A stretch of 64,000 nt of DNA. It comes from Candidatus Omnitrophota bacterium. Lineage in GTDB: Bacteria > Omnitrophota > Gorgyraeia > 2-01-FULL-45-10. Below the pieces are notes generated by a model, which saw nothing but the letters and a program-made list of their open reading frames with translations, was not told the DNA's origin and made no database searches. The number at the start of each line of letters is the position of its first letter. Position 1 is the first letter of the stretch. Both the position numbers and the translations under genes were made by a program. The DNA lies in NCBI GenBank assembly GCA_041661345.1, contig JBAZUO010000004.1, positions 13,688-77,687 on the forward strand, in the 5' to 3' direction. Positions 1,551 through 49,335 of the stretch are shown here, piece after piece.

Positions 1551-3004
1551 TATTTGTCCTTTAATCCTATCAGTGCTTTTCTGGCAGCCACACATATCGC
1601 TTCATAACAATCTTGCGCGCCACAAGCCAACCCTTCCTTTTCCAGATCTTTGACAAGAAACGGTTTACCGAATCTCACTTTGATCGGATAACATTTGGGG
1701 TACTGTTCCGTACTGGACCAGGCCTCGTGAGCTCCTTCTATGGCCACAGGTACGAGCTGTGCCCCCGTCTCCTTAGCCAAAATACCGAATCCTTTTTTAA
1801 ATTTCCCGACTTCGCCTGTACTGCTGCGTATTCCTTCCGGAAAGAAGCACAAATTTTTGCCGTGGTCTAACACATAATAACAGCTGCGCAAGCTCTCCAG
1901 AAAATGCGTTGAAAAATCAAAGGGAATGAATCTTTCCATCTTTACGACATTCCTTAATAGACGAGATTTTATGAACGGCCTGAAAAAATACGGTATGAAG
2001 ATGAAGTAAAAGATCTGGAACCCCCGTATACGCGGCAGGCTTGCGGCAATGGCCGGCCCATCAAGAAAACTCGTATGGTTGGGATAAAAAATACAAGCCC
2101 CCTCCGTAGGTACGTTCTCTTGTCCTTCCACCTTAATCCTAAAAAATAATTTCATGATAGAATAAAATATGGCTGTTATAGTAAATCGAAATAGCCAGGC
2201 AAAGAAACCGTTACCCAATTCGATCGCTCCCAGATGTTCTTCCTTCGGCGGTATTTGTAAATTTTTTTTCCAGTAGTTCGGCCCCAGAGATAACTCTTTA
2301 TCCTCCATGGGGATGTCTTTGGCTCCGCCCAATGCATCCGTTATCCCCAAAATAAGATCTTTTACACTAAAGGCTCTCGAGATCGCTTCATCTTTTATAT
2401 CCGCGCTAAAAGCCAACTCAAGGCACGAAGCAAGCTCTATCCTGCCTAATGAATCTATACCAAGGTCCAGCTCTAAAGAATCCTCGAGCGTTATAGGTCT
2501 TCTGATACCGCATAGCTCCTTTAAGGATTCCAAAATTTTTATGCCAATCTCGGATCCTATTAATAGACTGTCCTCATTCGTCAGCTCTCCTCGAACCGGA
2601 GGAGGGCCTTTTATCCCCTCGATGACTCTACGTTCATACATCTTCTTGATCATATATCTTTTTAGCTTACCAAACCGGATATGCGGCAGATCCTCCAGCG
2701 TAATAGTAAAACCTTTAAGCCTTTTATAAGAAGGCAGCGACGGCGAGGCATTGTCAAATTTCTCCTTAAGGACTAAGCATAGATTCACTTCGGCAAATTC
2801 CCTGAATTTATCAAGATCCGGCTGGATGACAGCCCAAAGAACTTTCGATTTTTTTACGCCTCCCATTCCGGAAACTATAAAGACGCACATCTCTTTGATG
2901 GGAGCAACTTTTGAATAGAACTCCTCGATCTCTTCCGGGCAAATTTTCTCCCCTGACTTCAATATGATAAAATCTCTAAATATATCTGTGATGGCTTCTG
3001 TCAT
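1550..3004 (-). CDS. Tri-domain lipid acyltransferase: orphan AMP-binding C-terminal subdomain, then an acyl-carrier (PP-binding) domain, then a PlsC-type lysophospholipid acyltransferase domain.
   Basis: N-terminus GEKICPEEIEEFY...LPHIRFGKLKR resembles the A9/A10 region of adenylate-forming enzymes. The ACP motif LELDLGIDSLGRIEL is present. The PlsC motifs NHTSFLD (H-x4-D) and FPEGIRSSTGE are present. The start ATGA overlaps the stop of the upstream gene, which suggests translational coupling. Confidence 0.7.
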   Translation of the reverse strand: MTEAITDIFRDFIILKSGEKICPEEIEEFYSKVAPIKEMCVFIVSGMGGVKKSKVLWAVIQPDLDKFREFAEVNLCLVLKEKFDNASPSLPSYKRLKGFTITLEDLPHIRFGKLKRYMIKKMYERRVIEGIKGPPPVRGELTNEDSLLIGSEIGIKILESLKELCGIRRPITLEDSLELDLGIDSLGRIELASCLELAFSADIKDEAISRAFSVKDLILGITDALGGAKDIPMEDKELSLGPNYWKKNLQIPPKEEHLGAIELGNGFFAWLFRFTITAIFYSIMKLFFRIKVEGQENVPTEGACIFYPNHTSFLDGPAIAASLPRIRGFQIFYFIFIPYFFRPFIKSRLLRNVVKMERFIPFDFSTHFLESLRSCYYVLDHGKNLCFFPEGIRSSTGEVGKFKKGFGILAKETGAQLVPVAIEGAHEAWSSTEQYPKCYPIKVRFGKPFLVKDLEKEGLACGAQDCYEAICVAARKALIGLKDK

Positions 3005-5418
3005 TTATCAATACCATTTTTCAATTCTATTGCATTCGTTCCGGGCGAAATTCTTACATTCGCAAAACCAGGTAATTGAATATCTATCGGCGGCTCTTTC
3101 GTAAACCAAATTCCTTGCCATTCGACAAGGACATTTTCTTCCTGAGGTTTTATGGAAATTTGAATAATGCCAAATCTTGTCGGCGCGGGCCCAAACGCGA
3201 TCGTTTGTTTTTTACTTAACCAGATTCGCGGTATCCCCGAACATAATATTAATCGGCCGTTTTCTTCACGTACAAAACAATTTCTTATCATCAAAACCCA
3301 TTCCGCCGCGGCCCACACATGCTGCCCGTCCCCCATGCATCCGCCGCCTGTGCGTGGATGCACCGACTCAGGCCATTGTCCCGTTGGTGAAGCCAGTTTA
3401 GCCACCGCTGTCATTAAACCAAAATATCTTGGATCGCCTGCGCGCAAAAGCACCTGGGCTAAATGCAGTGTAAGGTAAGGATTGATCCCAGAATGGGTCA
3501 TATCATGAAAGAATCCGCCATGGATCAAACAATTTTTCATTAAATAATCAACTGTATCTAAAATCCTTGGATCATTCTGTTTAAAAATACGAAGCGGATA
3601 GCCGGCAACCAAAGAGCCAATCGCCCCCGCATCCAAGCGGCGATAAGGAGATGCTGGTATCGCAGGCCTTTTCAAACGAACTTCGACTTTTTTCAAGCTT
3701 TTGTCAATACTCTCCAGTAAAGAATTTGATTCAACTTCAAAATAAAGAGCACGATCATTATCCTTGTAAGCAGTGCATAAAAAAGCTGCTGCTTTTAATC
3801 CCGCTACAGCCCAGAAATCATCCCAATAATAAAAATCATTCGGCCCCAGATGTTCGGCGCTGAATCCCGACGGTAATAAGCCTGCATGAGGAAATCGTAA
3901 ATCGCCGGATAAACGCTTTTTACAGATCCACTTACCGGCTTTACTGATCGATTCTTTCCATTCTTCCGGTGGTACATTTCCCGTCATCTCACAATACTGA
4001 CGCATGATCCACAGGGCCTCACCGTTGGAATCCCACTCCCCTTCTTGAGAGAGGAAATAACCATCAGCTGTCTGACGGGAGCGGAAACAATCTAAGGCTC
4101 GTCGAACGCGCTCGGTTAACCCGGCAGATAACATGGCAGATAATATAAAAGCGGCATCGCGAAACCAAAATCGCCGGTAAATATAAGGACCTGGATAAAC
4201 TTCCTTCGGAGAATGCAAAATCATTGTGTGGATAGCGGCTTCGTAAAGAAATTGAATTTGTTCATCTGGAATTTGCAATATACAGATGCCTTGAAGACTT
4301 TTCTTCCACTCCACCTGAGCAGCCTCTTGAGGGTACCTATAAGATCCTCTTTCAATTTTATTTTTCGTTAAAGGTACCAAAACGGTTATTTCTTGTAATT
4401 CTCCCGTCTCCAATATAAAAACGGCTGCGGAGCTGGCCATACCGACTTTGCATGAAATTTCTTTTTCAAATTCATTCGATGATAAACGGCTATAAACATC
4501 ACCTCGATAATAGTTCGAAAATACGTATTGATCCGGACACTTATCAAAATATATAAAATTTTCCTGATTTACCTTCCAGCCCAACGAATCTTCGAGTAGG
4601 GTAATGCTATTTATAAAGCTCACGCCTTCGGGGTTATAAGGCCTGAGAGAAACGACTAGCCGCGCATTAGTGGAACCAGACCCTGTGATTTTAACCTGGC
4701 AAATAGGTTCTTTGGCTGGACCAATAACTTGCGCTTTCAATTGAAGCTTTAATTGCCCAAGACTTGATTCTGTGATCACGCAAAGATTATCATCGAAAGT
4801 CATCTTTTGCGATACATTTGGCATGCGCGACGGAATTAATGGCTCTCCCTCTTTTGGAATAATCCAGGCGTCAATGGACCACCCATCATAATAGGGCGTA
4901 ACAAGGCCGCGTGGATCTATAATAGGAAATTCGGTGCTGTCAGGAACGCCTAAAGCTGTCCAATTTCTATGGGTGAGATTAATTTGAGTCAGTGAAAAAG
5001 ACCGCGGTATAAACGCCGGATCTTCAGGATCATATTGACATTCTACCCAATAAGGCCAGATCCAATCAAGGTTATGTTGAATGGCTAAGCTATTTATTAA
5101 ACCACGAGCGTGCATGACAGCCCCTGAACGCAACAGCTCCGTCGGAGCTGCCACCTCCGAGGGTTGCGCAAAACTCTGTAATCGAGAAATCAATTTAACA
5201 GGATCTAAAAACCCCTGCCTGCGCGCAGCATCGCTCAATAAAAATTTCCACGGTAACCATTTCCACCATATAAAATAAGCCCGCTCTTTCAACAAGATTC
5301 TAAAAACCCACCACTTAAAGCAGATAAAGGCAAATAAGGCTGTCAACGTTGTAGCGATAATCAACGCTGCAAAAATAGCCCCGGGCCACAAGTTAAGGAT
5401 ACTTTGATTTATTAACAT
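3001..5418 (-). CDS. Membrane-anchored six-hairpin glycosidase-like protein of 805 aa (GH15/GH63/GDE_C-like (alpha/alpha)6 barrel).
   Basis: N-terminal TM helix (AIFAALIIATTLTALFAFICF). The segment YRRFWFRDAAFILSAMLSAGL...EGEWDSNGEALWIMRQY is typical of glucoamylase-like six-hairpin glycosidases. The family assignment is by motif only. Confidence 0.5.
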   Translation of the reverse strand: MLINQSILNLWPGAIFAALIIATTLTALFAFICFKWWVFRILLKERAYFIWWKWLPWKFLLSDAARRQGFLDPVKLISRLQSFAQPSEVAAPTELLRSGAVMHARGLINSLAIQHNLDWIWPYWVECQYDPEDPAFIPRSFSLTQINLTHRNWTALGVPDSTEFPIIDPRGLVTPYYDGWSIDAWIIPKEGEPLIPSRMPNVSQKMTFDDNLCVITESSLGQLKLQLKAQVIGPAKEPICQVKITGSGSTNARLVVSLRPYNPEGVSFINSITLLEDSLGWKVNQENFIYFDKCPDQYVFSNYYRGDVYSRLSSNEFEKEISCKVGMASSAAVFILETGELQEITVLVPLTKNKIERGSYRYPQEAAQVEWKKSLQGICILQIPDEQIQFLYEAAIHTMILHSPKEVYPGPYIYRRFWFRDAAFILSAMLSAGLTERVRRALDCFRSRQTADGYFLSQEGEWDSNGEALWIMRQYCEMTGNVPPEEWKESISKAGKWICKKRLSGDLRFPHAGLLPSGFSAEHLGPNDFYYWDDFWAVAGLKAAAFLCTAYKDNDRALYFEVESNSLLESIDKSLKKVEVRLKRPAIPASPYRRLDAGAIGSLVAGYPLRIFKQNDPRILDTVDYLMKNCLIHGGFFHDMTHSGINPYLTLHLAQVLLRAGDPRYFGLMTAVAKLASPTGQWPESVHPRTGGGCMGDGQHVWAAAEWVLMIRNCFVREENGRLILCSGIPRIWLSKKQTIAFGPAPTRFGIIQISIKPQEENVLVEWQGIWFTKEPPIDIQLPGFANVRISPGTNAIELKNGIDK

Positions 5419-8053: not shown

Positions 8054-8243
8054 TTATGGTAATTTCTTTACCCATTTTTCTAACAATAAGGATACTATCA
8101 GGCTATATAACCTCTAATATGTGTATTTTACTAATCACAAAAAACTTGTCAACAAATTTTAAGACCGCGAAATGGCACTTGTTCAAAATAATAAAATATG
8201 GAAAAAGGAAGAGCTACATTAAATAGAAACTACGCTTCTCTTT

Positions 8244-8338
8244 AAAAACGTTTGGCCGCGAGACCTGCTATAGTCTACATGTTGGCAAGGCGAAGGGCAA
8301 AAGCAGACTACGCTTTTGCCCGAAGCCCGAACGTTGTT
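8244..8338 (-). repeat. tRNA-trailer structured element, copy A. It abuts the CCA of tRNA-Glu.
   Basis: aaacgtttggccgc...gcccgaagcccgaacgtt. Its termini are inverted-complementary, with a G.U-compatible change relative to the other copies. The copy is mosaic: its 5' half matches copy D and its 3' half matches copy E. Confidence 0.6.
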
Positions 8339-8447: not shown

Positions 8448-8512
8448 CCTTTTCCAATATATTTTGGAAAAGGAATATTAAGGAAAACCTTTTTAGAAAA
8501 GGTTTTCCTTAA
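8448..8512. repeat. Two adjacent perfect hairpins: ccttttccaatatattttggaaaagg, and ttaaggaaaacctttttagaaaaggttttccttaa (the conserved element-associated hairpin).
   Basis: Direct inspection. The second hairpin is homologous to the hairpins at 9526, 47010 and 47981, with compensatory changes. Confidence 0.6.
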
Positions 8513-8629
8513 AACGATTTGGCCGCAAGGCCGCTGTTGCCAGCGTGTCGGCGGGCGAAGGGCGAAAAACAATACAACATTTTTCGGCCCGAAGCCCAAA
8601 TCGCTAAATGGTGCGCGGGACAGGACTTG
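8511..8629 (-). repeat. tRNA-trailer structured element copy B (8511-8608), followed by a 21-nt duplicate of the 3' end of tRNA-Leu (8609-8629).
   Basis: Element: aaaacgatttggccgc...ggcccgaagcccaaatcgctaaa. The segment tggtgcgcgggacaggacttg is identical to 8746-8766, which is the real tRNA-Leu 3' end. Confidence 0.6.
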
Positions 8630-8745
8630 GTCCTTCGGTTCGCAGTGCTCACCTTCGGACCGGCCAATTTGCTGTCGGGCATAGCCCTTTTCTTCCTATT
8701 CGTCAGCGCAAATTGGCTTCAAGTCCATATCCGGACTGACTAAAA

Positions 8746-8840: not shown

Positions 8841-9002
8841 TCAATTAGCTTCTCGTAGTTTACGGCGCGCCAACTTCTGCTGTTTCGATAATACCATATC
8901 CGCAAGCTCGTTCATTAATCTAATGCCTTCCAGTTTTTTTTCTGCGGATATTTTAACACCTCTTATAATCTTTTCTTTTCGCGGCTCCCACCCAGAAATC
9001 AT
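8841..9002 (-). CDS. Hypothetical 53-aa basic helical protein, translationally coupled (ATGA overlap) to the upstream nucleotidyltransferase-like gene.
   Basis: Not in the ORF track. Hand translation gives MISGWEPRKEKIIRGVKISAEKKLEGIRLMNELADMVLSKQQKLARRKLREAN. It ends 10 nt before the tRNA-Leu 5' end. Confidence 0.35.
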   Translation of the reverse strand: MISGWEPRKEKIIRGVKISAEKKLEGIRLMNELADMVLSKQQKLARRKLREAN

Positions 9003-9490
9003 ATTACCTTTCTAACTAATTTTAGCTCTTCAATATCTTTTAAATCTTTATCACGCCCTGATGCTCTTTTCATTTTTATAAAATCTTTCGGCGATAAAAT
9101 TATAAGGTTTAGGCCTTTTATTTTAACTTTTAGGGCGTTTTTTATAGCGTTCTTAAAATTAACCGGCGAATCAATAACTATATCAACTTCTTCATAACTT
9201 TTTTCACCCTTGTAAAAATTAAACGCCTTCATATTTTTATTTTCAATCCAATCTTTGCGTGTTTTCGCATCTGCTATCATTGCAGGATCTACCGGTTGTT
9301 TGACATGATACCCGGCCTTCCTCAATATCTTAACTATCTTTCCAAGATTCTCATCCGTCATTTCAACCAGGATGTCCATGTCGAGCGTATTTCTCTGTCC
9401 TCCAAGGAGATTAAATGCCATGCCTCCCACGAGGACATATTTTACCTTCTTGCTCTGAAATTCTTTAAGTATCTCTTCGTACAGTATCAC
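8999..9490 (-). CDS. Minimal nucleotidyltransferase-fold (Pol-beta superfamily, MNT-like) protein.
   Basis: VGGMAFNLLGGQRNTLDMDILV fits the G[GS]-x9-13-D-x-[DE] nucleotidyltransferase motif. The gene lies between tRNA-Leu and tRNA-Gln. Confidence 0.45.
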   Translation of the reverse strand: MILYEEILKEFQSKKVKYVLVGGMAFNLLGGQRNTLDMDILVEMTDENLGKIVKILRKAGYHVKQPVDPAMIADAKTRKDWIENKNMKAFNFYKGEKSYEEVDIVIDSPVNFKNAIKNALKVKIKGLNLIILSPKDFIKMKRASGRDKDLKDIEELKLVRKVI

Positions 9491-9525
9491 ATCAAGCCCT
9501 TAATTATGCTTTTGAAAAAAGAACA

Positions 9526-9654
9526 TTAAGAAAAACCCTTTCATAAAAGGTTTTTCTTAAACAAATTTGGGCGCTAGCCCCACTGGCTATTGCTTTGTCG
9601 GTGGGCCGAAGTCAAAAACCAGACAACAGTTTTTGGCGGAGGCCAAATTTGCAT
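9526..9654 (-). repeat. Conserved hairpin (9526-9560, ttaagaaaaaccctttcataaaaggtttttcttaa) plus tRNA-trailer element copy C (9559-9654), abutting the tRNA-Gln CCA.
   Basis: aaacaaatttgggcgc...ggcggaggccaaatttgcattgg. The terminal stem caaatttgg/ccaaatttg covaries relative to copies B and D (cgatttgg/ccaaatcg). Confidence 0.6.
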
Positions 9655-45256: not shown

Positions 45257-46972
45257 TTATTTTATCTTTTCGTCGATTTCTTTTTTCAACATCTGCACAA
45301 ACTCTTCTATAGTTTTCTTGCCCATATCGCCCTGAGTCTTCGACCTTACAGACAAGGTCCCTTCGGCAGCTTCTTTCTCGCCCAGCACTATCATGTACGG
45401 GACCTTATCCATCTCGGCGTCCCTTATCTTCTTCTGCAAACGCTCATTACGCGAATCAAGGCTGACCCTGATCTCCAGGGCCGTCAGGATCGACTCTACC
45501 TTCTTCGCGTACTGAAAGGCCTTCTCCGATACCGGTATTATAGCACATTGGGTCGGCGCAAGCCACATGGGCATCGCCCCGGCAAAATGTTCGATGAGGG
45601 CGCCCATGAAGCGTTCGAGCGAGCCCAGTATTACCCTGTGAAGCATTATCGGGCGCTGTTTATTGCCTGTCTCGTCTATATAAGCGAGATCGAATCTCTC
45701 GGGAAGCGCAAAATCGCACTGGATAGTGGCACATTGCCACTCGCGCTTCAATGCGTCCTTCAGTTTAATATCTATCTTCGGCCCGTAGAAGGCGCCGTCG
45801 CCTTCGTTGATCGTGTAATTTAAATATTTTCTCTTCAATGCGCCGACCAGGGCACGCTCGGCCGCGGCCCAATCCGCGTCATTTCCGATCGATTTTTCGG
45901 GACGGGTCGATATCTCGACGGAGAAATCTTCGAATCCGAATACGTTCAATGTATCGATTACGAAATCTATGACCTTTATGATCTCGTCTTCCACCTGGTC
46001 CCTTAAACAGAATATATGCGCATCGTCCTGGGTGAACCCTCTTACGCGCAGGAGCCCGTGGAGAACCCCGGATTTCTCATTTCTGTAGACGGTGCCTAAT
46101 TCAAAATATCTGATCGGAAGGTCACGGTAACTTCTCGTCTTCGATTTATACACGAGAATATGGCCGGGGCAGTTCATAGGTTTTATCGCGTACTCTTGCC
46201 CCTCTATTTTGAATATGTACATGTTCTCTTTGTAATAATCGTAGTGACCCGACGTCATCCATATGTCGCTCTTCATTATGTGGGGGCCCAGAACAAGCTC
46301 ATACCCCCTCTTCAGGTGTTCCTTTCTTATGTAGTTTTCGATTATGCTCCTCAACATCGCCCCTTTCGGGTGATATAAGACAAGCCCCGGCCCAACCTCT
46401 TCGTTGAAGCTGAAATATTCCAGCTGTTTACCGAGCAGCCTGTGATCGCGCCTCTTGGCCTCTTCGATCATGGCGAGATATGCCTTTAAATCTTTTTCGG
46501 TCTCGAACGCGGTCCCATATATTCTCTGAAGCATCGGATTCGTCTCGATGCCGTGCCAATACGCCCCCGCGATCGAAAGAAGTTTGAACGCCTTTATCTT
46601 ACCGGTAGATTCGATATGCGGCCCGCGGCATAGATCCGTAAAATCCCCGTCTTTGTAGATCGTGACCGTATCTTCCGGGATCCTTTCTATCAATTCCAAT
46701 TTATACTTCTCGCCCATATTTTTGAAAAGCCTGATGGCGTCCTCTTTTTTCAGCTCCGTCCTCTCGAAGGTGCAATTCTTTTTTATGATCTCACGCATCT
46801 TAGCTTCGATCTTCTCGAGGTCTTCGGGTGTAAAAGGCTCTTCTTTGTCAAAATCATAATAAAAGCCGTCCTCGATCGATGGGCCTATGCCCAGGCGTAT
46901 CTTTGGCCACAGGCTTTTAACCGCCTGCGCCATCACGTGCGATGTCGAATGTCTTAGTACCGATAAATCCAT
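45257..46972 (-). CDS. thrS: Threonyl-tRNA synthetase (lacks the N-terminal TGS domain).
   Basis: Class II synthetase core; 571 aa. Confidence 0.9.
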   Translation of the reverse strand: MDLSVLRHSTSHVMAQAVKSLWPKIRLGIGPSIEDGFYYDFDKEEPFTPEDLEKIEAKMREIIKKNCTFERTELKKEDAIRLFKNMGEKYKLELIERIPEDTVTIYKDGDFTDLCRGPHIESTGKIKAFKLLSIAGAYWHGIETNPMLQRIYGTAFETEKDLKAYLAMIEEAKRRDHRLLGKQLEYFSFNEEVGPGLVLYHPKGAMLRSIIENYIRKEHLKRGYELVLGPHIMKSDIWMTSGHYDYYKENMYIFKIEGQEYAIKPMNCPGHILVYKSKTRSYRDLPIRYFELGTVYRNEKSGVLHGLLRVRGFTQDDAHIFCLRDQVEDEIIKVIDFVIDTLNVFGFEDFSVEISTRPEKSIGNDADWAAAERALVGALKRKYLNYTINEGDGAFYGPKIDIKLKDALKREWQCATIQCDFALPERFDLAYIDETGNKQRPIMLHRVILGSLERFMGALIEHFAGAMPMWLAPTQCAIIPVSEKAFQYAKKVESILTALEIRVSLDSRNERLQKKIRDAEMDKVPYMIVLGEKEAAEGTLSVRSKTQGDMGKKTIEEFVQMLKKEIDEKIK

Positions 46973-47009
46973 AATCTAACCTTCCTACCTTCCTTAAAGG
47001 AAAGGATCC

Positions 47010-47135
47010 TTGAAGGGAAACCTTGGTTTCCCTTCAAAACGATTTGGTCGCAAGACCTGCTGTTGTTTGACAGCCGACAGGGCGGAGGGCAAAAAACAAC
47101 ACAACATTTTTTGGCCCGAAGCCCAAATCGTTTAG
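47010..47135 (-). repeat. Conserved hairpin (47010-47037, ttgaagggaaaccttggtttcccttcaa) plus tRNA-trailer element copy D (47036-47135), abutting the tRNA-Leu(UAA) CCA.
   Basis: aaaacgatttggtcgcaagacctgctg...ttttttggcccgaagcccaaatcgtttag. The 11-bp terminal complementarity is perfect. Confidence 0.6.
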
Positions 47136-47221
47136 TGGTGGGCAAGGAGGGAGTCGAACCCTCATGGCCTTGCGGCCAGTGACTTTTAAGGCCACCGTGT
47201 ATGCCTTTCCACCACTTGCCC
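47136..47221 (-). tRNA. tRNA-Leu, anticodon UAA, with a long variable arm. Continuous; no intron.
   Basis: Reverse complement gives GGGCAAGTGGTGGAAAGGCATACACGGTGGCCTTAAAAGTCACTGGCCGCAAGGCCATGAGGGTTCGACTCCCTCCTTGCCCACCA. The anticodon stem is GTGGC/GTCAC with loop CTTAAAA. Confidence 0.85.
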
Positions 47222-47231
47222 GAAAATTATT

Positions 47232-47945
47232 TTAAGCACTCACACAACAAACTGTTTTACTTTTGCTCCAGCCTTTATATGAATCAAGACATTGCCGAGC
47301 TAATTTTATTTTCCTATCTAATCCTAAGCAATTTTTGTAATAACACTGTCTAGCAATTTCTTTTGCTGCCATCTTCCCGTATTTTAAAATCCATTGTGTT
47401 TCGGATTCTTTATGAACCCTGCCGCTAACATGTAGAAAGCATTCCGTTACATAATTTAACCATTTTATAAAAACTCCAGATCCTGAATAGATTCGTAAAT
47501 TCCACTGTTCCTTTTTATTAGTAGGGTGAAGCCATCGCCGGATACATCCGTCACCATCGATCAATCCTCTCAAAAAATCAACATAATATCTACGAGAAAC
47601 GTTTAGAGCGCCTATTGTTAACGACTTGTGTGGCCTAAGGCCAATTAACATTAGAAGATTGTAGAAATTCTTGTTACCAATTTGTATGCGACAGGCGCGT
47701 TGTTTTCTTGCGCCATATTTACTGCCTATCTTATTGCCTATCCCGGTTGCCACTTTAATCTTCTCGAGAAAAGCATATTCTTTAGCTGTTATATCAATAT
47801 GTCGTCCGTCCGAAGACAAGCATCCGTCGCTTGTAATCAGTCCAACAAGATACCAAAGATTTGATCCTGTAATGTTTAGATCTTTTCGTTTACGAGGCAT
47901 ATGCTTTCTTGCGTCTGCCAATTCCGCCATCCCGGCCATCCGCAA
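47232..47945 (-). CDS. Free-standing double-motif LAGLIDADG homing endonuclease.
   Basis: Two LAGLIDADG-like motifs: WYLVGLITSDGCLS and VDFLRGLIDGDGCI. The gene ends 10 nt upstream of tRNA-Leu(UAA). TTG or internal ATG start. Confidence 0.7.
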   Translation of the reverse strand: MRMAGMAELADARKHMPRKRKDLNITGSNLWYLVGLITSDGCLSSDGRHIDITAKEYAFLEKIKVATGIGNKIGSKYGARKQRACRIQIGNKNFYNLLMLIGLRPHKSLTIGALNVSRRYYVDFLRGLIDGDGCIRRWLHPTNKKEQWNLRIYSGSGVFIKWLNYVTECFLHVSGRVHKESETQWILKYGKMAAKEIARQCYYKNCLGLDRKIKLARQCLDSYKGWSKSKTVCCVSA

Positions 47946-47980
47946 ATCTTAATCATCCTTCCTTTTAAGGAAGAGATATA

Positions 47981-48102
47981 TTAAAGAGAAACTACGTTTC
48001 TCTTTAAACAAATTTGGGCGCGAGCCCCGTCGTTGCTTTACGCATTGGCGGGCCGAAGCCAAAAAGCAGACTACACTTTTTGGCGGAGGCCAAATTTGTG
48101 TA
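47981..48102 (-). repeat. Conserved hairpin (47981-48007, ttaaagagaaactacgtttctctttaa) plus tRNA-trailer element copy E (48007-48102), abutting the tRNA-Val CCA.
   Basis: aaacaaatttgggcgcgagcccc...ggcgggccgaagcc...ttttggcggaggccaaatttgtgta. In minus-strand sense it contains a GGCUUCGGCC tetraloop hairpin. Confidence 0.6.
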
Positions 48103-48179
48103 TGGTGGACGCGACAGGACTCGAACCTGTGACCCCTACCATGTCAAGGTAGTGCTCTAACCAACTGAGCTACGCGTCC
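48103..48179 (-). tRNA. tRNA-Val, anticodon GAC.
   Basis: Reverse complement gives GGACGCGTAGCTCAGTTGGTTAGAGCACTACCTTGACATGGTAGGGGTCACAGGTTCGAGTCCTGTCGCGTCCACCA. Confidence 0.85.
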
Positions 48180-48181
48180 CT

Positions 48182-48256
48182 TGGAAGCGTGGGCGAGAAT
48201 TGAACTCGCGTATAGGAGTTTTGCAGACTCCTGCCTTACCGCTTGGCTACCACGCC
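48182..48256 (-). tRNA. tRNA-Cys, anticodon GCA.
   Basis: Reverse complement gives GGCGTGGTAGCCAAGCGGTAAGGCAGGAGTCTGCAAAACTCCTATACGCGAGTTCAATTCTCGCCCACGCTTCCA. A 2-nt spacer separates it from tRNA-Val. Confidence 0.85.
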
Positions 48257-48678
48257 GCTTTAACCCATTCGACGGAGCCATCACGCTTAAGAATATTTTT
48301 CCCAGCCTTGCCGTGATTTCCGTCAAAATCTTCGACGAGAATTTCCTTCGGGTTCGACGATTCCGTCAAACCCGCTTTGTAATTGTAATCACTCTTATCT
48401 TTGGTGCCCGCCGCCTTAGAGGCAGGGCAGTCAAAAACGTTCTGATTGTCAATGTAATTCGGATAAAGCTCCCCCAGCGCCGCAGGAAAGGCCTCATTGT
48501 GATCAAGTGCATACGCATGAAGACCCAAGCTTATCCGGCGCAAATTCTCCATACATTCCAGGGTGTGGGCGCGGTTTTTTGCCATATTGACAAATGGGGC
48601 CAACACCGCGATCATCGCAAAAAAAATCGCGGTCACAACCACCAGTTCAATCACCGTAAAACCGCTTCTCTTATTCAT
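48247..48678 (-). CDS. Prepilin-type N-terminal cleavage/methylation domain protein with an H-X9-DG (DUF1559) C-terminus.
   Basis: RSGFTVIELVVVTAIF and a C-terminal DGSVEWV. Confidence 0.8.
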   Translation of the reverse strand: MNKRSGFTVIELVVVTAIFFAMIAVLAPFVNMAKNRAHTLECMENLRRISLGLHAYALDHNEAFPAALGELYPNYIDNQNVFDCPASKAAGTKDKSDYNYKAGLTESSNPKEILVEDFDGNHGKAGKNILKRDGSVEWVKAAW

Positions 48679-48684
48679 AAAATT

Positions 48685-49335
48685 TTAATATATATTACAG
48701 TTTAACACCTTGTCAACGATAATCTTCGCAAGCTCGGCCTTGGGCTTATTTTGAACCTTGATAAGGCCTCCCGCCCTGTCTATGATCAGCACATCGGTCT
48801 TGCCTTTGCCAAATGGACTTCTCCCGGCTTTCAATCTATTTGCTATAATGATATCGAGGTTCTTTTCGTGTAATTTTTTACGCGCGTTTCGCTCCAAATT
48901 CTCTGTTTCCAGCGCAAAACCCGCCAAAATTGCCCTTTTACGTCTGCCTAGCTGTTTCAATATGTCCGGATTTTGAACGAGCTCAAGCATTATCCGGCCG
49001 CGGCCTTTTTTGATCTTATTTGCGGATATACTTGCCGGCCGCCAATCGCATACCGCCGAGGCCATTATTACGCAGTCACATCTTTTGACGTTTTCAAGGA
49101 CCGCGCTAAGCATCTCCCGGGCGCTCTCTATGCTTATAAATTTAACTCCGCGCGGAGCCTTAAGTGTTGTCGGCCCGCTTATTAAAATCACTTTGAGCCC
49201 TGATCTTCTCGCGGCCTTGGCGATCTCATAACCAAAGGAACCTGTGGAATAGTTTGAGATGAATCGGACGGGATCTATCTTTTCCCGCGTGGGCCCTGCG
49301 GTAATAAGAACTCTCTTAACCGGCGCGTCCTTCAC
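48685..49335 (-). CDS. coaB: Phosphopantothenate--cysteine ligase (CoaB), encoded separately from CoaC.
   Basis: VLITAGPTREKIDPVRFISNYSTGSFG. GTG start overlapping the coaC TGA stop (GTGA). Confidence 0.85.
   Translation of the reverse strand: MKDAPVKRVLITAGPTREKIDPVRFISNYSTGSFGYEIAKAARRSGLKVILISGPTTLKAPRGVKFISIESAREMLSAVLENVKRCDCVIMASAVCDWRPASISANKIKKGRGRIMLELVQNPDILKQLGRRKRAILAGFALETENLERNARKKLHEKNLDIIIANRLKAGRSPFGKGKTDVLIIDRAGGLIKVQNKPKAELAKIIVDKVLNCNIY

Follow-up and report, generated by a model that had tools for sequence, protein, structure and literature searches.

Phage T4 carries, within its tRNA gene cluster, the free-standing GIY-YIG homing endonuclease SegB (PMC2330249). SegB cuts the tRNA region of relatives that lack its gene, and its own gene and the flanking tRNA sequence are preferentially inherited (PMC2330249). 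Here we describe a homing endonuclease gene (HEG) that likewise stands free amid tRNA genes, in a 64,000-nucleotide (nt) stretch of the genome of a Candidatus Omnitrophota bacterium (GenBank assembly GCA_041661345.1, contig JBAZUO010000004.1, positions 13,688 to 77,687), the whole of which is referred to below as the window. Unlike SegB, which is a GIY-YIG phage enzyme that homes during co-infection, this gene belongs to a LAGLIDADG family that resides in cellular chromosomes, is tied to one tRNA identity (Leu) across phyla, and appears to leave 5' stumps of the old tRNA gene while replacing the whole tRNA allele. Judged from sequence comparison, it is probably a real selfish, DNA-cutting gene in an active copy.

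A second phage arrangement, collaborative homing, joins an intron to a free-standing HEG that targets the intron insertion site, the intron protecting the gene beside the HEG (PMC6083498; PMC3984707). Known pairs come from cyanophage S-PM2, where F-CphI adjoins an intron-containing psbA, and from phage T4, where mobE accompanies the I-TevIII intron (PMC6083498, PMC2790892, PMC3984707). Some relatives of the window HEG (L049, L215 and L218; L-numbers denote the fetched loci of relatives) share this layout, with a free-standing HEG beside a gene that carries a presumably protective group I intron devoid of an open reading frame (ORF). However, the known cases are phage systems with Endo VII-like or HNH nucleases and protein-gene targets, and the window has no intron; there, protection would come from compensatory stem substitutions in the linked tRNA. 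To our knowledge, nearly all described cases of collaborative homing and of free-standing homing endonucleases are in phages.

By profile and fold, the closest solved relatives of the window protein are enzymes of the I-Tsp061I/I-DmoI type, which like it are monomeric, have two motifs and measure about 200 amino acids (aa). Identity to them is about 20%, and they lie inside archaeal rRNA introns, whereas the present family is bacterial, free-standing and tRNA-linked. A bacterial HEG inside a tRNA group I intron also targets the anticodon region of a tRNA gene, but it lies inside the intron, belongs to another nuclease family, PD-(D/E)XK, and targets another tRNA. Integrative elements in tRNA genes leave a partial tRNA duplicate as well, with function restored by element-borne sequence. 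However, these encode integrases, usually duplicate the 3' part and are kilobases long, whereas the present unit is about 0.8 kb, has no integrase, is flanked by a 5' stump and would install a complete foreign tRNA allele. Finally, in synthetic cleave-and-rescue (toxin-antidote) drives, which are engineered, Cas9-based and eukaryotic, a nuclease destroys the wild-type allele of an essential gene and is linked to a recoded, resistant copy; the resemblance of the present HEG to these is read from allele patterns only. We found no description in the literature of a tRNA-Leu-linked family of free-standing LAGLIDADG proteins. Relative to SegB and the collaborative-homing pairs, the distinguishing features are the nuclease family, the chromosomal setting, the strict tie to a single tRNA across phyla, and a replacement tRNA allele in place of splicing.

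A two-motif LAGLIDADG gene beside tRNA-Leu(UAA)

The initial annotation of the window reported a two-motif LAGLIDADG gene 10 nt upstream of a same-strand, intron-less tRNA-Leu(UAA), and this description is borne out: the stop codon lies at 47234..47232, the gap to the tRNA is exactly 10 nt, and the tRNA gene is continuous, with the anticodon loop CTTAAAA, by both ARAGORN and Rfam (54.5 bits). The ORF that it listed, 47232..47945 on the minus strand, does exist and would encode 237 aa if a TTG start were used. Most likely, however, the true start is the ATG at 47900 (222 aa), because homologues are typically 219-222 aa long and begin MPxKRK, so that the coding sequence (CDS) would run from 47900 to 47232. 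The 45 nt upstream within the long ORF are non-coding and contain a 29-nt 5' fragment of another tRNA-Leu(UAA), which had been missed.

The protein matches Pfam LAGLIDADG_3 (PF14528) at aa 30-101 (E 1.1e-7, above the family cut-off) and, weakly, LAGLIDADG_1 at aa 125-151; no NCBIfam family matches it. Its two LAGLIDADG motifs are LVGLITSDG and LRGLIDGDG, in which the acidic residues D40 and D132 are invariant among 21 homologues, and the family alignment, indexed on the window sequence, has 61 invariant and 38 nearly invariant positions that include both motifs. An AlphaFold (AF2) model of the protein (pLDDT 82.9, pTM 0.81) has the pseudo-symmetric alpha-beta-beta-alpha-beta-beta-alpha fold with a DNA-binding beta saddle. 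Foldseek places it closest to I-Tsp061I among PDB entries (2dch; E 2e-12, TM 0.74), an entry that a sequence profile also reaches (E 1.2e-10). The model resembles I-AniI and I-DmoI as well, and each of the top 50 PDB matches has a LAGLIDADG fold, among them homing endonucleases, inteins, the bI3 maturase and WhiA. The HEG has a lower GC content (0.36-0.40) than the sequence on either side (0.46-0.53). A phage origin was considered and rejected, as the viral databases gave no phage vector: IMG/VR returned one match at 26% identity, and INPHARED matches did not exceed 27%.

A tRNA-Leu stump and a replaced tRNA allele

The 29-nt fragment, GCCGGGATGGCGGAATTGGCAGACGCAAG (47936..47908), corresponds to nt 1-29 of a tRNA-Leu(UAA) gene that we call allele A, covering the acceptor strand, the D arm and the start of the anticodon stem. 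Using thrS as a host marker, we retrieved contigs of the nearest relatives. Two of these, L081 (thrS 94% identical) and L084 (84%), keep the synteny of the window (coaBC, a pilin-like gene, the tRNAs, and thrS-infC-rpmI-rplT-pheST) and lack the HEG. The fragment is identical at 29/29 positions to L081 3754-3782 and L084 3888-3916, where the resident tRNA-Leu(UAA) continues beyond these 29 nt with GGAyTTAAAATCCC. In a three-way alignment, the window departs exactly after nt 29 and then presents 7 nt, the HEG, 10 nt and a complete tRNA-Leu(UAA). This downstream gene, allele B, differs from resident allele A in its acceptor, D and anticodon stems. The features of the locus, in order of transcription, are as follows.

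48182..48256, minus strand: tRNA-Cys(GCA), first gene of the tRNA cluster (ARAGORN; Rfam 64.2 bits)
48103..48179, minus strand: tRNA-Val(GAC) (ARAGORN; Rfam 72.9 bits)
47946..48102, minus strand: structured trailer repeat of about 157 nt after tRNA-Val (repeat families, L084 alignment, covariation)
47908..47936, minus strand: tRNA-Leu stump (29/29 match to resident allele A)
47901..47907, minus strand: left junction AAAGCAT, from stump to start codon (sequence)
47232..47900, minus strand: HEG CDS, LAGLIDADG, two motifs, monomeric type, 222 aa plus stop (Pfam, homologues, model, Foldseek)
47222..47231, minus strand: 10-nt spacer from the HEG stop codon to tRNA position +1 (sequence)
47136..47221, minus strand: tRNA-Leu(UAA) allele B, intact and intron-less, GGGCAAG acceptor (ARAGORN; Rfam 54.5 bits)
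46973..47135, minus strand: trailer repeat between tRNA-Leu and thrS (repeat families, alignment, covariation)
45257..46972, minus strand: thrS, conserved downstream neighbour and host marker (ORF list, thrS comparison)

Since the stump belongs to allele A and the downstream tRNA to another allele, we conclude that in the window lineage the resident tRNA-Leu(UAA) was truncated and functionally replaced by a unit of HEG plus tRNA. Other relatives agree. Allele A is present without a HEG in L082/83, L205 and L209, so that, with L081, L084 and L210, the HEG-less loci make presence of the gene patchy among relatives. Allele B, with 1 nt changed, recurs behind an 80%-identical HEG in L212 and behind a HEG remnant in L206, and wherever a HEG or a remnant is found, the tRNA-Leu allele differs from the resident one. 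We take allele B to have been imported together with the HEG. L084, without a HEG, shows the orthologous Val-trailer-Leu layout, and by this comparison the trailer at 47946..48102 is resident flank outside the mobile unit. The right end of the converted tract lies somewhere within the trailer at 46973..47135, itself a fast-changing repeat.

Stumps of allele A also precede HEGs in L212 (27 nt; HEG 80% identical to that of the window), L034 (22 nt; 57%) and L213 (14 nt; 77%), with junctions related to the AAAGCAT of the window in L212 (ggaaacct) and L034 (gaaacac). A search with nhmmer and a full tRNA-Leu profile yielded 4 matches and was too insensitive for such short pieces; instead, we used a position-weight scan for the first 16 nt of the tRNA, with empirical controls. 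The window stump scores 22.2, a value reached by 0/1797 control windows, and eight of the 81 upstream windows exceed the 99th percentile of these controls. Seven of the eight (L005, L009, L032, L034, L065, L066 and the window) abut the start codon or lie within 80 nt of it; further stumps occur in L027, L212 and L213. Omnitrophota stumps are unlike the intact tRNA that follows the HEG, and it is usually the acceptor type that distinguishes the two. In the candidate phyla radiation (CPR), 13/17 loci have a D-loop-to-anticodon fragment, with the anticodon of the linked tRNA, within 90 nt upstream of the start codon, compared with 1/1226 in the same search of controls (Fisher p 1e-26, for loci that are not phylogenetically independent but represent at least 4 groups).

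Two other explanations of the upstream piece were rejected. The first, a 5' exon belonging to a split tRNA or to one with an intron, fails because the tRNA downstream lacks nothing, its two acceptor strands pair with each other, and the piece derives from another allele. Nor is the piece a likely promoter in the window, as a minus-strand promoter scan was empty and no -10 element of the following kind comes after it. In a CPR group linked to tRNA-Leu(UAG) (L062, L068, L071, L073 and L078), inspection about 45 nt upstream of the ORF reveals TTGGCA-17 nt-TATAAT (TATGAT in L078), where the D-loop part of the stump and the junction apparently form a near-consensus sigma-70 promoter built from a dead tRNA half.

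Linkage to tRNA-Leu across phyla

Among the candidates scored, 519 homologues of the window protein were found at E <= 0.001, most of them from Omnitrophota; apart from the database entry of the window itself, the best 120 are 58-81% identical to it. An exhaustive search gave 40 clusters (50% identity clustering) at E <= 1e-30. From 261 GTDB species representatives encoding a relative, we fetched 80 loci. A same-strand tRNA-Leu directly follows the HEG in 77 of the 80, which come from Omnitrophota, CPR and others. At the remaining three ARAGORN reported no tRNA-Leu, and one of these, L049, has an intron-interrupted tRNA-Leu. The distance from stop codon to tRNA +1 is 0-16 nt at most loci; elsewhere the ORF runs a few codons into the tRNA. 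Omnitrophota HEGs precede tRNA-Leu(UAA), the usual order being Cys, HEG, Leu(UAA), Val, thrS. Relatives at 35-45% identity, from CPR, Chloroflexi, Margulisiibacteriota and one Burkholderiales metagenome-assembled genome (MAG), precede tRNA-Leu with the anticodon UAG, GAG or CAG, and Leu(CAA) was seen only upstream of the ORF, in L070 and L074. Because several anticodons occur behind the HEGs, we take the linkage to be to tRNA-Leu identity, not to UAA specifically.

At L074 (3890-4696), from a Margulisiibacteriota MAG, the HEG lies between a complete tRNA-Leu(CAA) 21 nt upstream and a tRNA-Leu(CAG) downstream, so that a whole tRNA gene occupies the position of the stump. The tRNA cluster of L023 contains, besides the tRNA-Leu-linked HEG, a second and distant LAGLIDADG ORF (2528-3106; 30% identity to the protein of the window), about 600 nt farther upstream.

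Gene callers push these ORFs into the adjoining tRNA, as at 47898-47945 in the window and in entries P0013, P0024, P0045, P0067, P0104 and P0108. N-terminal extensions such as ...FSGSNPLVA are the translated T arm and 3' end of tRNA-Cys, and the C-terminal extension of P0108 is the translated 5' half of tRNA-Leu(UAA). For annotation, then, 5' stumps and read-through of ORFs into tRNAs account for odd N- and C-terminal extensions in database entries.

Intron-bearing relatives

A group I intron at the window locus, a possibility initially raised for checking with Rfam, was not found: a scan of 46500-48700 at E <= 10 returned tRNAs only. Intron-containing tRNA-Leu(UAA) genes do occur in relatives, another point raised at that stage. 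In L049, a group I intron (Rfam RF00028, 76.9 bits) lies in the tRNA-Leu(UAA) directly after the HEG and splits it in the anticodon loop, the 5' exon ending in ...AAGGGACT and the 3' exon starting with TAAAATCCCT. The nearest relatives of the L049 HEG, in L215-217 and L218, have the same layout, with introns scoring 60-74 bits: tRNA-Cys, HEG, 5' exon of tRNA-Leu(UAA), ORF-less group I intron, 3' exon. The introns span L049 1078-1436, L215 2205-2533 and L218 2208-2556. Read by eye, the intron site apparently falls between U33 and U34, as the 5' exon ends GGGACT and the intron ends with G before TAAAATCCC; the cyanobacterial tRNA-Leu intron, by comparison, lies between U34 and A35.

The HEG is thus encoded outside the intron wherever one is present: the L049 intron has no ORF, and in L049, L215 and L218 the HEG precedes the 5' exon. 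It is as free-standing there as in the window, where the ORF sits alone between stump and tRNA. By sequence, the arrangement of L049, L215-217 and L218 is the layout of a collaborative-homing pair, which the intron-less window does not share. The initial suggestion that the gene is a remnant of an escaped intron-borne HEG finds no support, as no family member was found inside an intron. These relatives do, however, connect the family with the tRNA-Leu(UAA) intron.

A candidate target site in the anticodon arm

As a candidate site we considered the 30-nt anticodon-arm sequence GGCAGACGCAAGGGACTTAAAATCCCTCGG. It is matched at 29-30/30 positions in five HEG-less relatives with the resident allele (L081, L082, L084, L205 and L209); the three intron-bearing genes, once their exons are joined, match it equally well. 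In contrast, all 62 intron-less, HEG-linked tRNA-Leu(UAA) genes match it at 15-27/30, the mismatches falling mostly in the D stem and, as paired substitutions, in the anticodon stem; allele B of the window matches at 19/30. As a broad HEG-less control, and for this purpose only, we used unrelated metagenome loci with an uninterrupted Cys-Leu(UAA) junction. A match of at least 28/30 was found in 20/76 of these and in 0/54 HEG-linked genes, and the anticodon stem AGGGA/TCCCT in 22/76 versus 1/54 (p 3e-5). LAGLIDADG endonucleases cut targets of about 20 bp and leave 4-nt 3' overhangs. The last base of the window stump is nt 29, and the intron site of the relatives (33/34) lies 4 nt farther 3', so that loss of such an overhang might leave the stump where it ends.

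Patchy presence, decay and inheritance

Beyond the intact copies, the HEG is found in various states of decay. In L206 (thrS 84%), there is no HEG ORF and the last ~37 nt of the HEG region remain, before a tRNA resembling allele B. In L207/208, ATGCCGCATAAAAGAAAAGACCTAAATCTT is all that remains, the first 30 nt (MPHKRKDLNL), before a third tRNA allele. Among the 80 loci, L056 is frameshifted, L060 lacks the N-terminal half and L063 has a stop codon. Among hosts with thrS 82-94% identical to that of the window, nine loci lack the HEG and L034 carries one of the 57% class; hosts at 76-80% carry either a 76-80%-class or a 57-58%-class HEG, and both classes are likewise seen when related hosts at 77-83% are compared; and in L213 the HEG is 77% identical although the host thrS is 66% identical. 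This comparison appears to fit repeated invasion better than pure vertical descent. In a neighbour-joining tree of the HEGs set against the acceptor type of the linked tRNA, co-inheritance is seen only in the clade of the window, the tree being poorly resolved elsewhere.

Proposed mechanism

We consider it likely that the window HEG encodes a free-standing, monomeric LAGLIDADG homing endonuclease whose targets are tRNA-Leu genes and which is passed on along with a tRNA allele that resists it. The enzyme would cut HEG-less tRNA-Leu genes in or beside the anticodon arm, and the break would be repaired from a HEG-bearing chromosome. Because the HEG ends 0-16 nt before tRNA +1, and hence about 40 bp from the cut, it would be co-converted with the donor tRNA-Leu allele. 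The donor allele would escape cleavage through compensatory substitutions in the D and anticodon stems or, in one clade, by having a group I intron in the middle of the site. If donor and recipient have unlike upstream flanks, the left end would be joined illegitimately, leaving a 5' stump of the old tRNA. The stump could later serve as a left homology arm, which would explain its lasting identity to the local resident allele. It had been suggested at the outset that the HEG targets the tRNA-Leu/trailer region. The tRNA-Leu part of that proposal is well supported by the linkage across phyla, the stump and the HEG-less or remnant-bearing relatives; the trailers are not the target and form an independent repeat family that follows many tRNAs.

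Several observations weigh against this mechanism. Both the target site and the immunity of linked alleles are drawn from a correlation in which phylogeny is a confounder, since a single host clade supplies the best-matching HEG-less alleles. In L058 the consensus anticodon stem occurs beside a HEG, and L210 has a diverged allele without any HEG trace. About 50 Omnitrophota species share the locus of the gene, and HEGs are roughly as similar to one another as the thrS genes of their hosts, from which it follows that much of the inheritance is vertical; the gene may have a host function. The HEGs of the window and L212 are 80% identical and the thrS genes ~76%, a pair that by itself is no proof of recent transfer. 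Among thrS relatives, only L210 combines the Cys-Leu-Val order with absence of the HEG. When metagenomes were scanned for Cys-Leu(UAA) junctions without an insertion, at least 120 matches were obtained, and the 80 loci fetched were all from other phyla or lineages, with no tRNA-Val downstream and tRNA identities of <= 90% in partial alignments (84-88% over most of the tRNA). Finally, a promoter scan of the minus strand upstream of the HEG found no promoter-like site, and a terminator-like hairpin (48007..47981) lies upstream of the stump.

We propose more tentatively that the family acts as a natural cleave-and-rescue drive, in which an enzyme cutting the widely conserved anticodon arm of tRNA-Leu is welded, at 0-16 nt, to a resistant copy of the same gene; on balance we would not yet favor this broader idea. 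If true, it would account for how the ancient tRNA-Leu(UAA) intron, which has no ORF of its own, is mobilized, give a reason why whole tRNA-Leu loci recombine, and mean that HEG pressure drives compensatory evolution of tRNA-Leu stems across Omnitrophota and CPR. The allele pattern itself suggests an arms race written into tRNA stems. More generally, a LAGLIDADG family would be doing in the chromosomes of hundreds of uncultivated bacteria, aimed at a tRNA, the equivalent of what phage HEGs do, by a splicing-free route into an essential RNA gene that brings a replacement gene instead of an intron. As many bacteria share the predicted target, the family would offer meganucleases already suited to tRNA-Leu loci.

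Alternative explanations

Three other explanations were weighed, each of them less likely than homing into tRNA-Leu genes. The first is a domesticated LAGLIDADG host factor for tRNA-Leu, vertically inherited and immobile, acting as a maturase or chaperone of the pre-tRNA-Leu or its intron, or as a DNA-binding regulator of the tRNA operon. Its occurrence at one locus in ~50 Omnitrophota species, with identity roughly tracking thrS, would be expected of such a factor, as would strong sequence conservation and a reading frame uninterrupted in 71/81 copies. Among the structural neighbours of the protein are WhiA, the bI3 maturase and I-AniI, which is bifunctional, and in three relatives the gene adjoins a tRNA-Leu with an intron, a setting that would suit a maturase. 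However, both catalytic aspartates are invariant, the window tRNA-Leu has no intron to mature, and the closest relatives of the window organism have an intact tRNA-Leu with no gene or a dead remnant. Related hosts carry very different HEG lineages, and the stump is evidence that a working tRNA gene was lost to a replacement, an event for which a host factor would have no use. The initial annotation had named a widespread housekeeping paralogue as the finding that would undo its reading; the gene is indeed widespread, but it is patchy among close relatives, decays and is apparently not congruent with its hosts. We therefore regard a host factor as unlikely.

About equally improbable, in our estimate, is a fossil: a former homing endonuclease whose window copy is an inactive passenger, co-transcribed with an essential tRNA and retained because its deletion would risk tRNA damage. 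Degenerate copies exist (L056, L060, L063, L206 and L207), the scan of the window locus for expression signals found none, and the L212 copy is only 80% identical, so that the invasion may be old. Against this, the window ORF is intact, with the 61 invariant and 38 nearly invariant positions of the family and both motifs, and the stump is still 29/29 identical to the resident allele, where an old neutral stump should have decayed, as in L001. Finally, it is very improbable that ordinary recombination among tRNA genes and local repeats (trailers and 3'-end mini-elements) made the stump and the allele swap beside a HEG that is a mere neighbour: the cluster is full of repeats unrelated to the HEG and of partial tRNA duplications, such as a 3' fragment of tRNA-Leu(GAG) at 8634..8611 and the 3' repeats of tRNA-Cys and tRNA-Val in L084 and L212, but those duplications concern 3' ends and another kind of insertion, whereas the stumps are 5' pieces that adjoin the HEG start codon in at least 4 independent lineages from several phyla and agree in anticodon with the tRNA behind the HEG, and the non-resident tRNA allele occurs only with a HEG or HEG remnant, L210 being the sole exception.

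Other elements of the tRNA clusters

The trailers form a family of ~130-160 nt on the minus strand of the window (46973-47135, 47946-48102, 8205-8335, 8462-8610 and 9510-9654), each beginning right after the CCA of a tRNA gene; they match no Rfam family. RNAalifold on seven trailers (the five of the window and those of L081 and L084) gives 39 pairs, of which 17 have compensatory changes. The structure comprises a long closing stem, an A5/T5 hairpin, small hairpins and then a 13-bp terminator-like hairpin.

A second, smaller element of ~110-130 nt is inserted where tRNA genes end, and the final ~20-24 nt of the tRNA recur with it as a direct repeat. This element is found in the window at 8611-8745, minus strand, after tRNA-Leu(GAG); in L084 at 3471-3606, after tRNA-Cys; and in L212 at ~50-215, after tRNA-Val. 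The copies share the core GARGAAAAGGSC..TGSCCG...GCWCTG.CGARCSGAAG. We read it as a small element, separate from the HEG, with tRNA 3' ends as its likely target. In the other tRNA cluster of the window, an ORF for a DUF6036 nucleotidyltransferase (163 aa, Pfam E 4e-10) overlaps a 53-aa ORF at 8841-9490, minus strand, the pair sitting between a trailer and tRNA-Leu(GAG). A DUF6036 gene also lies directly upstream of thrS in L206; such genes may be another cargo that settles in these tRNA clusters.

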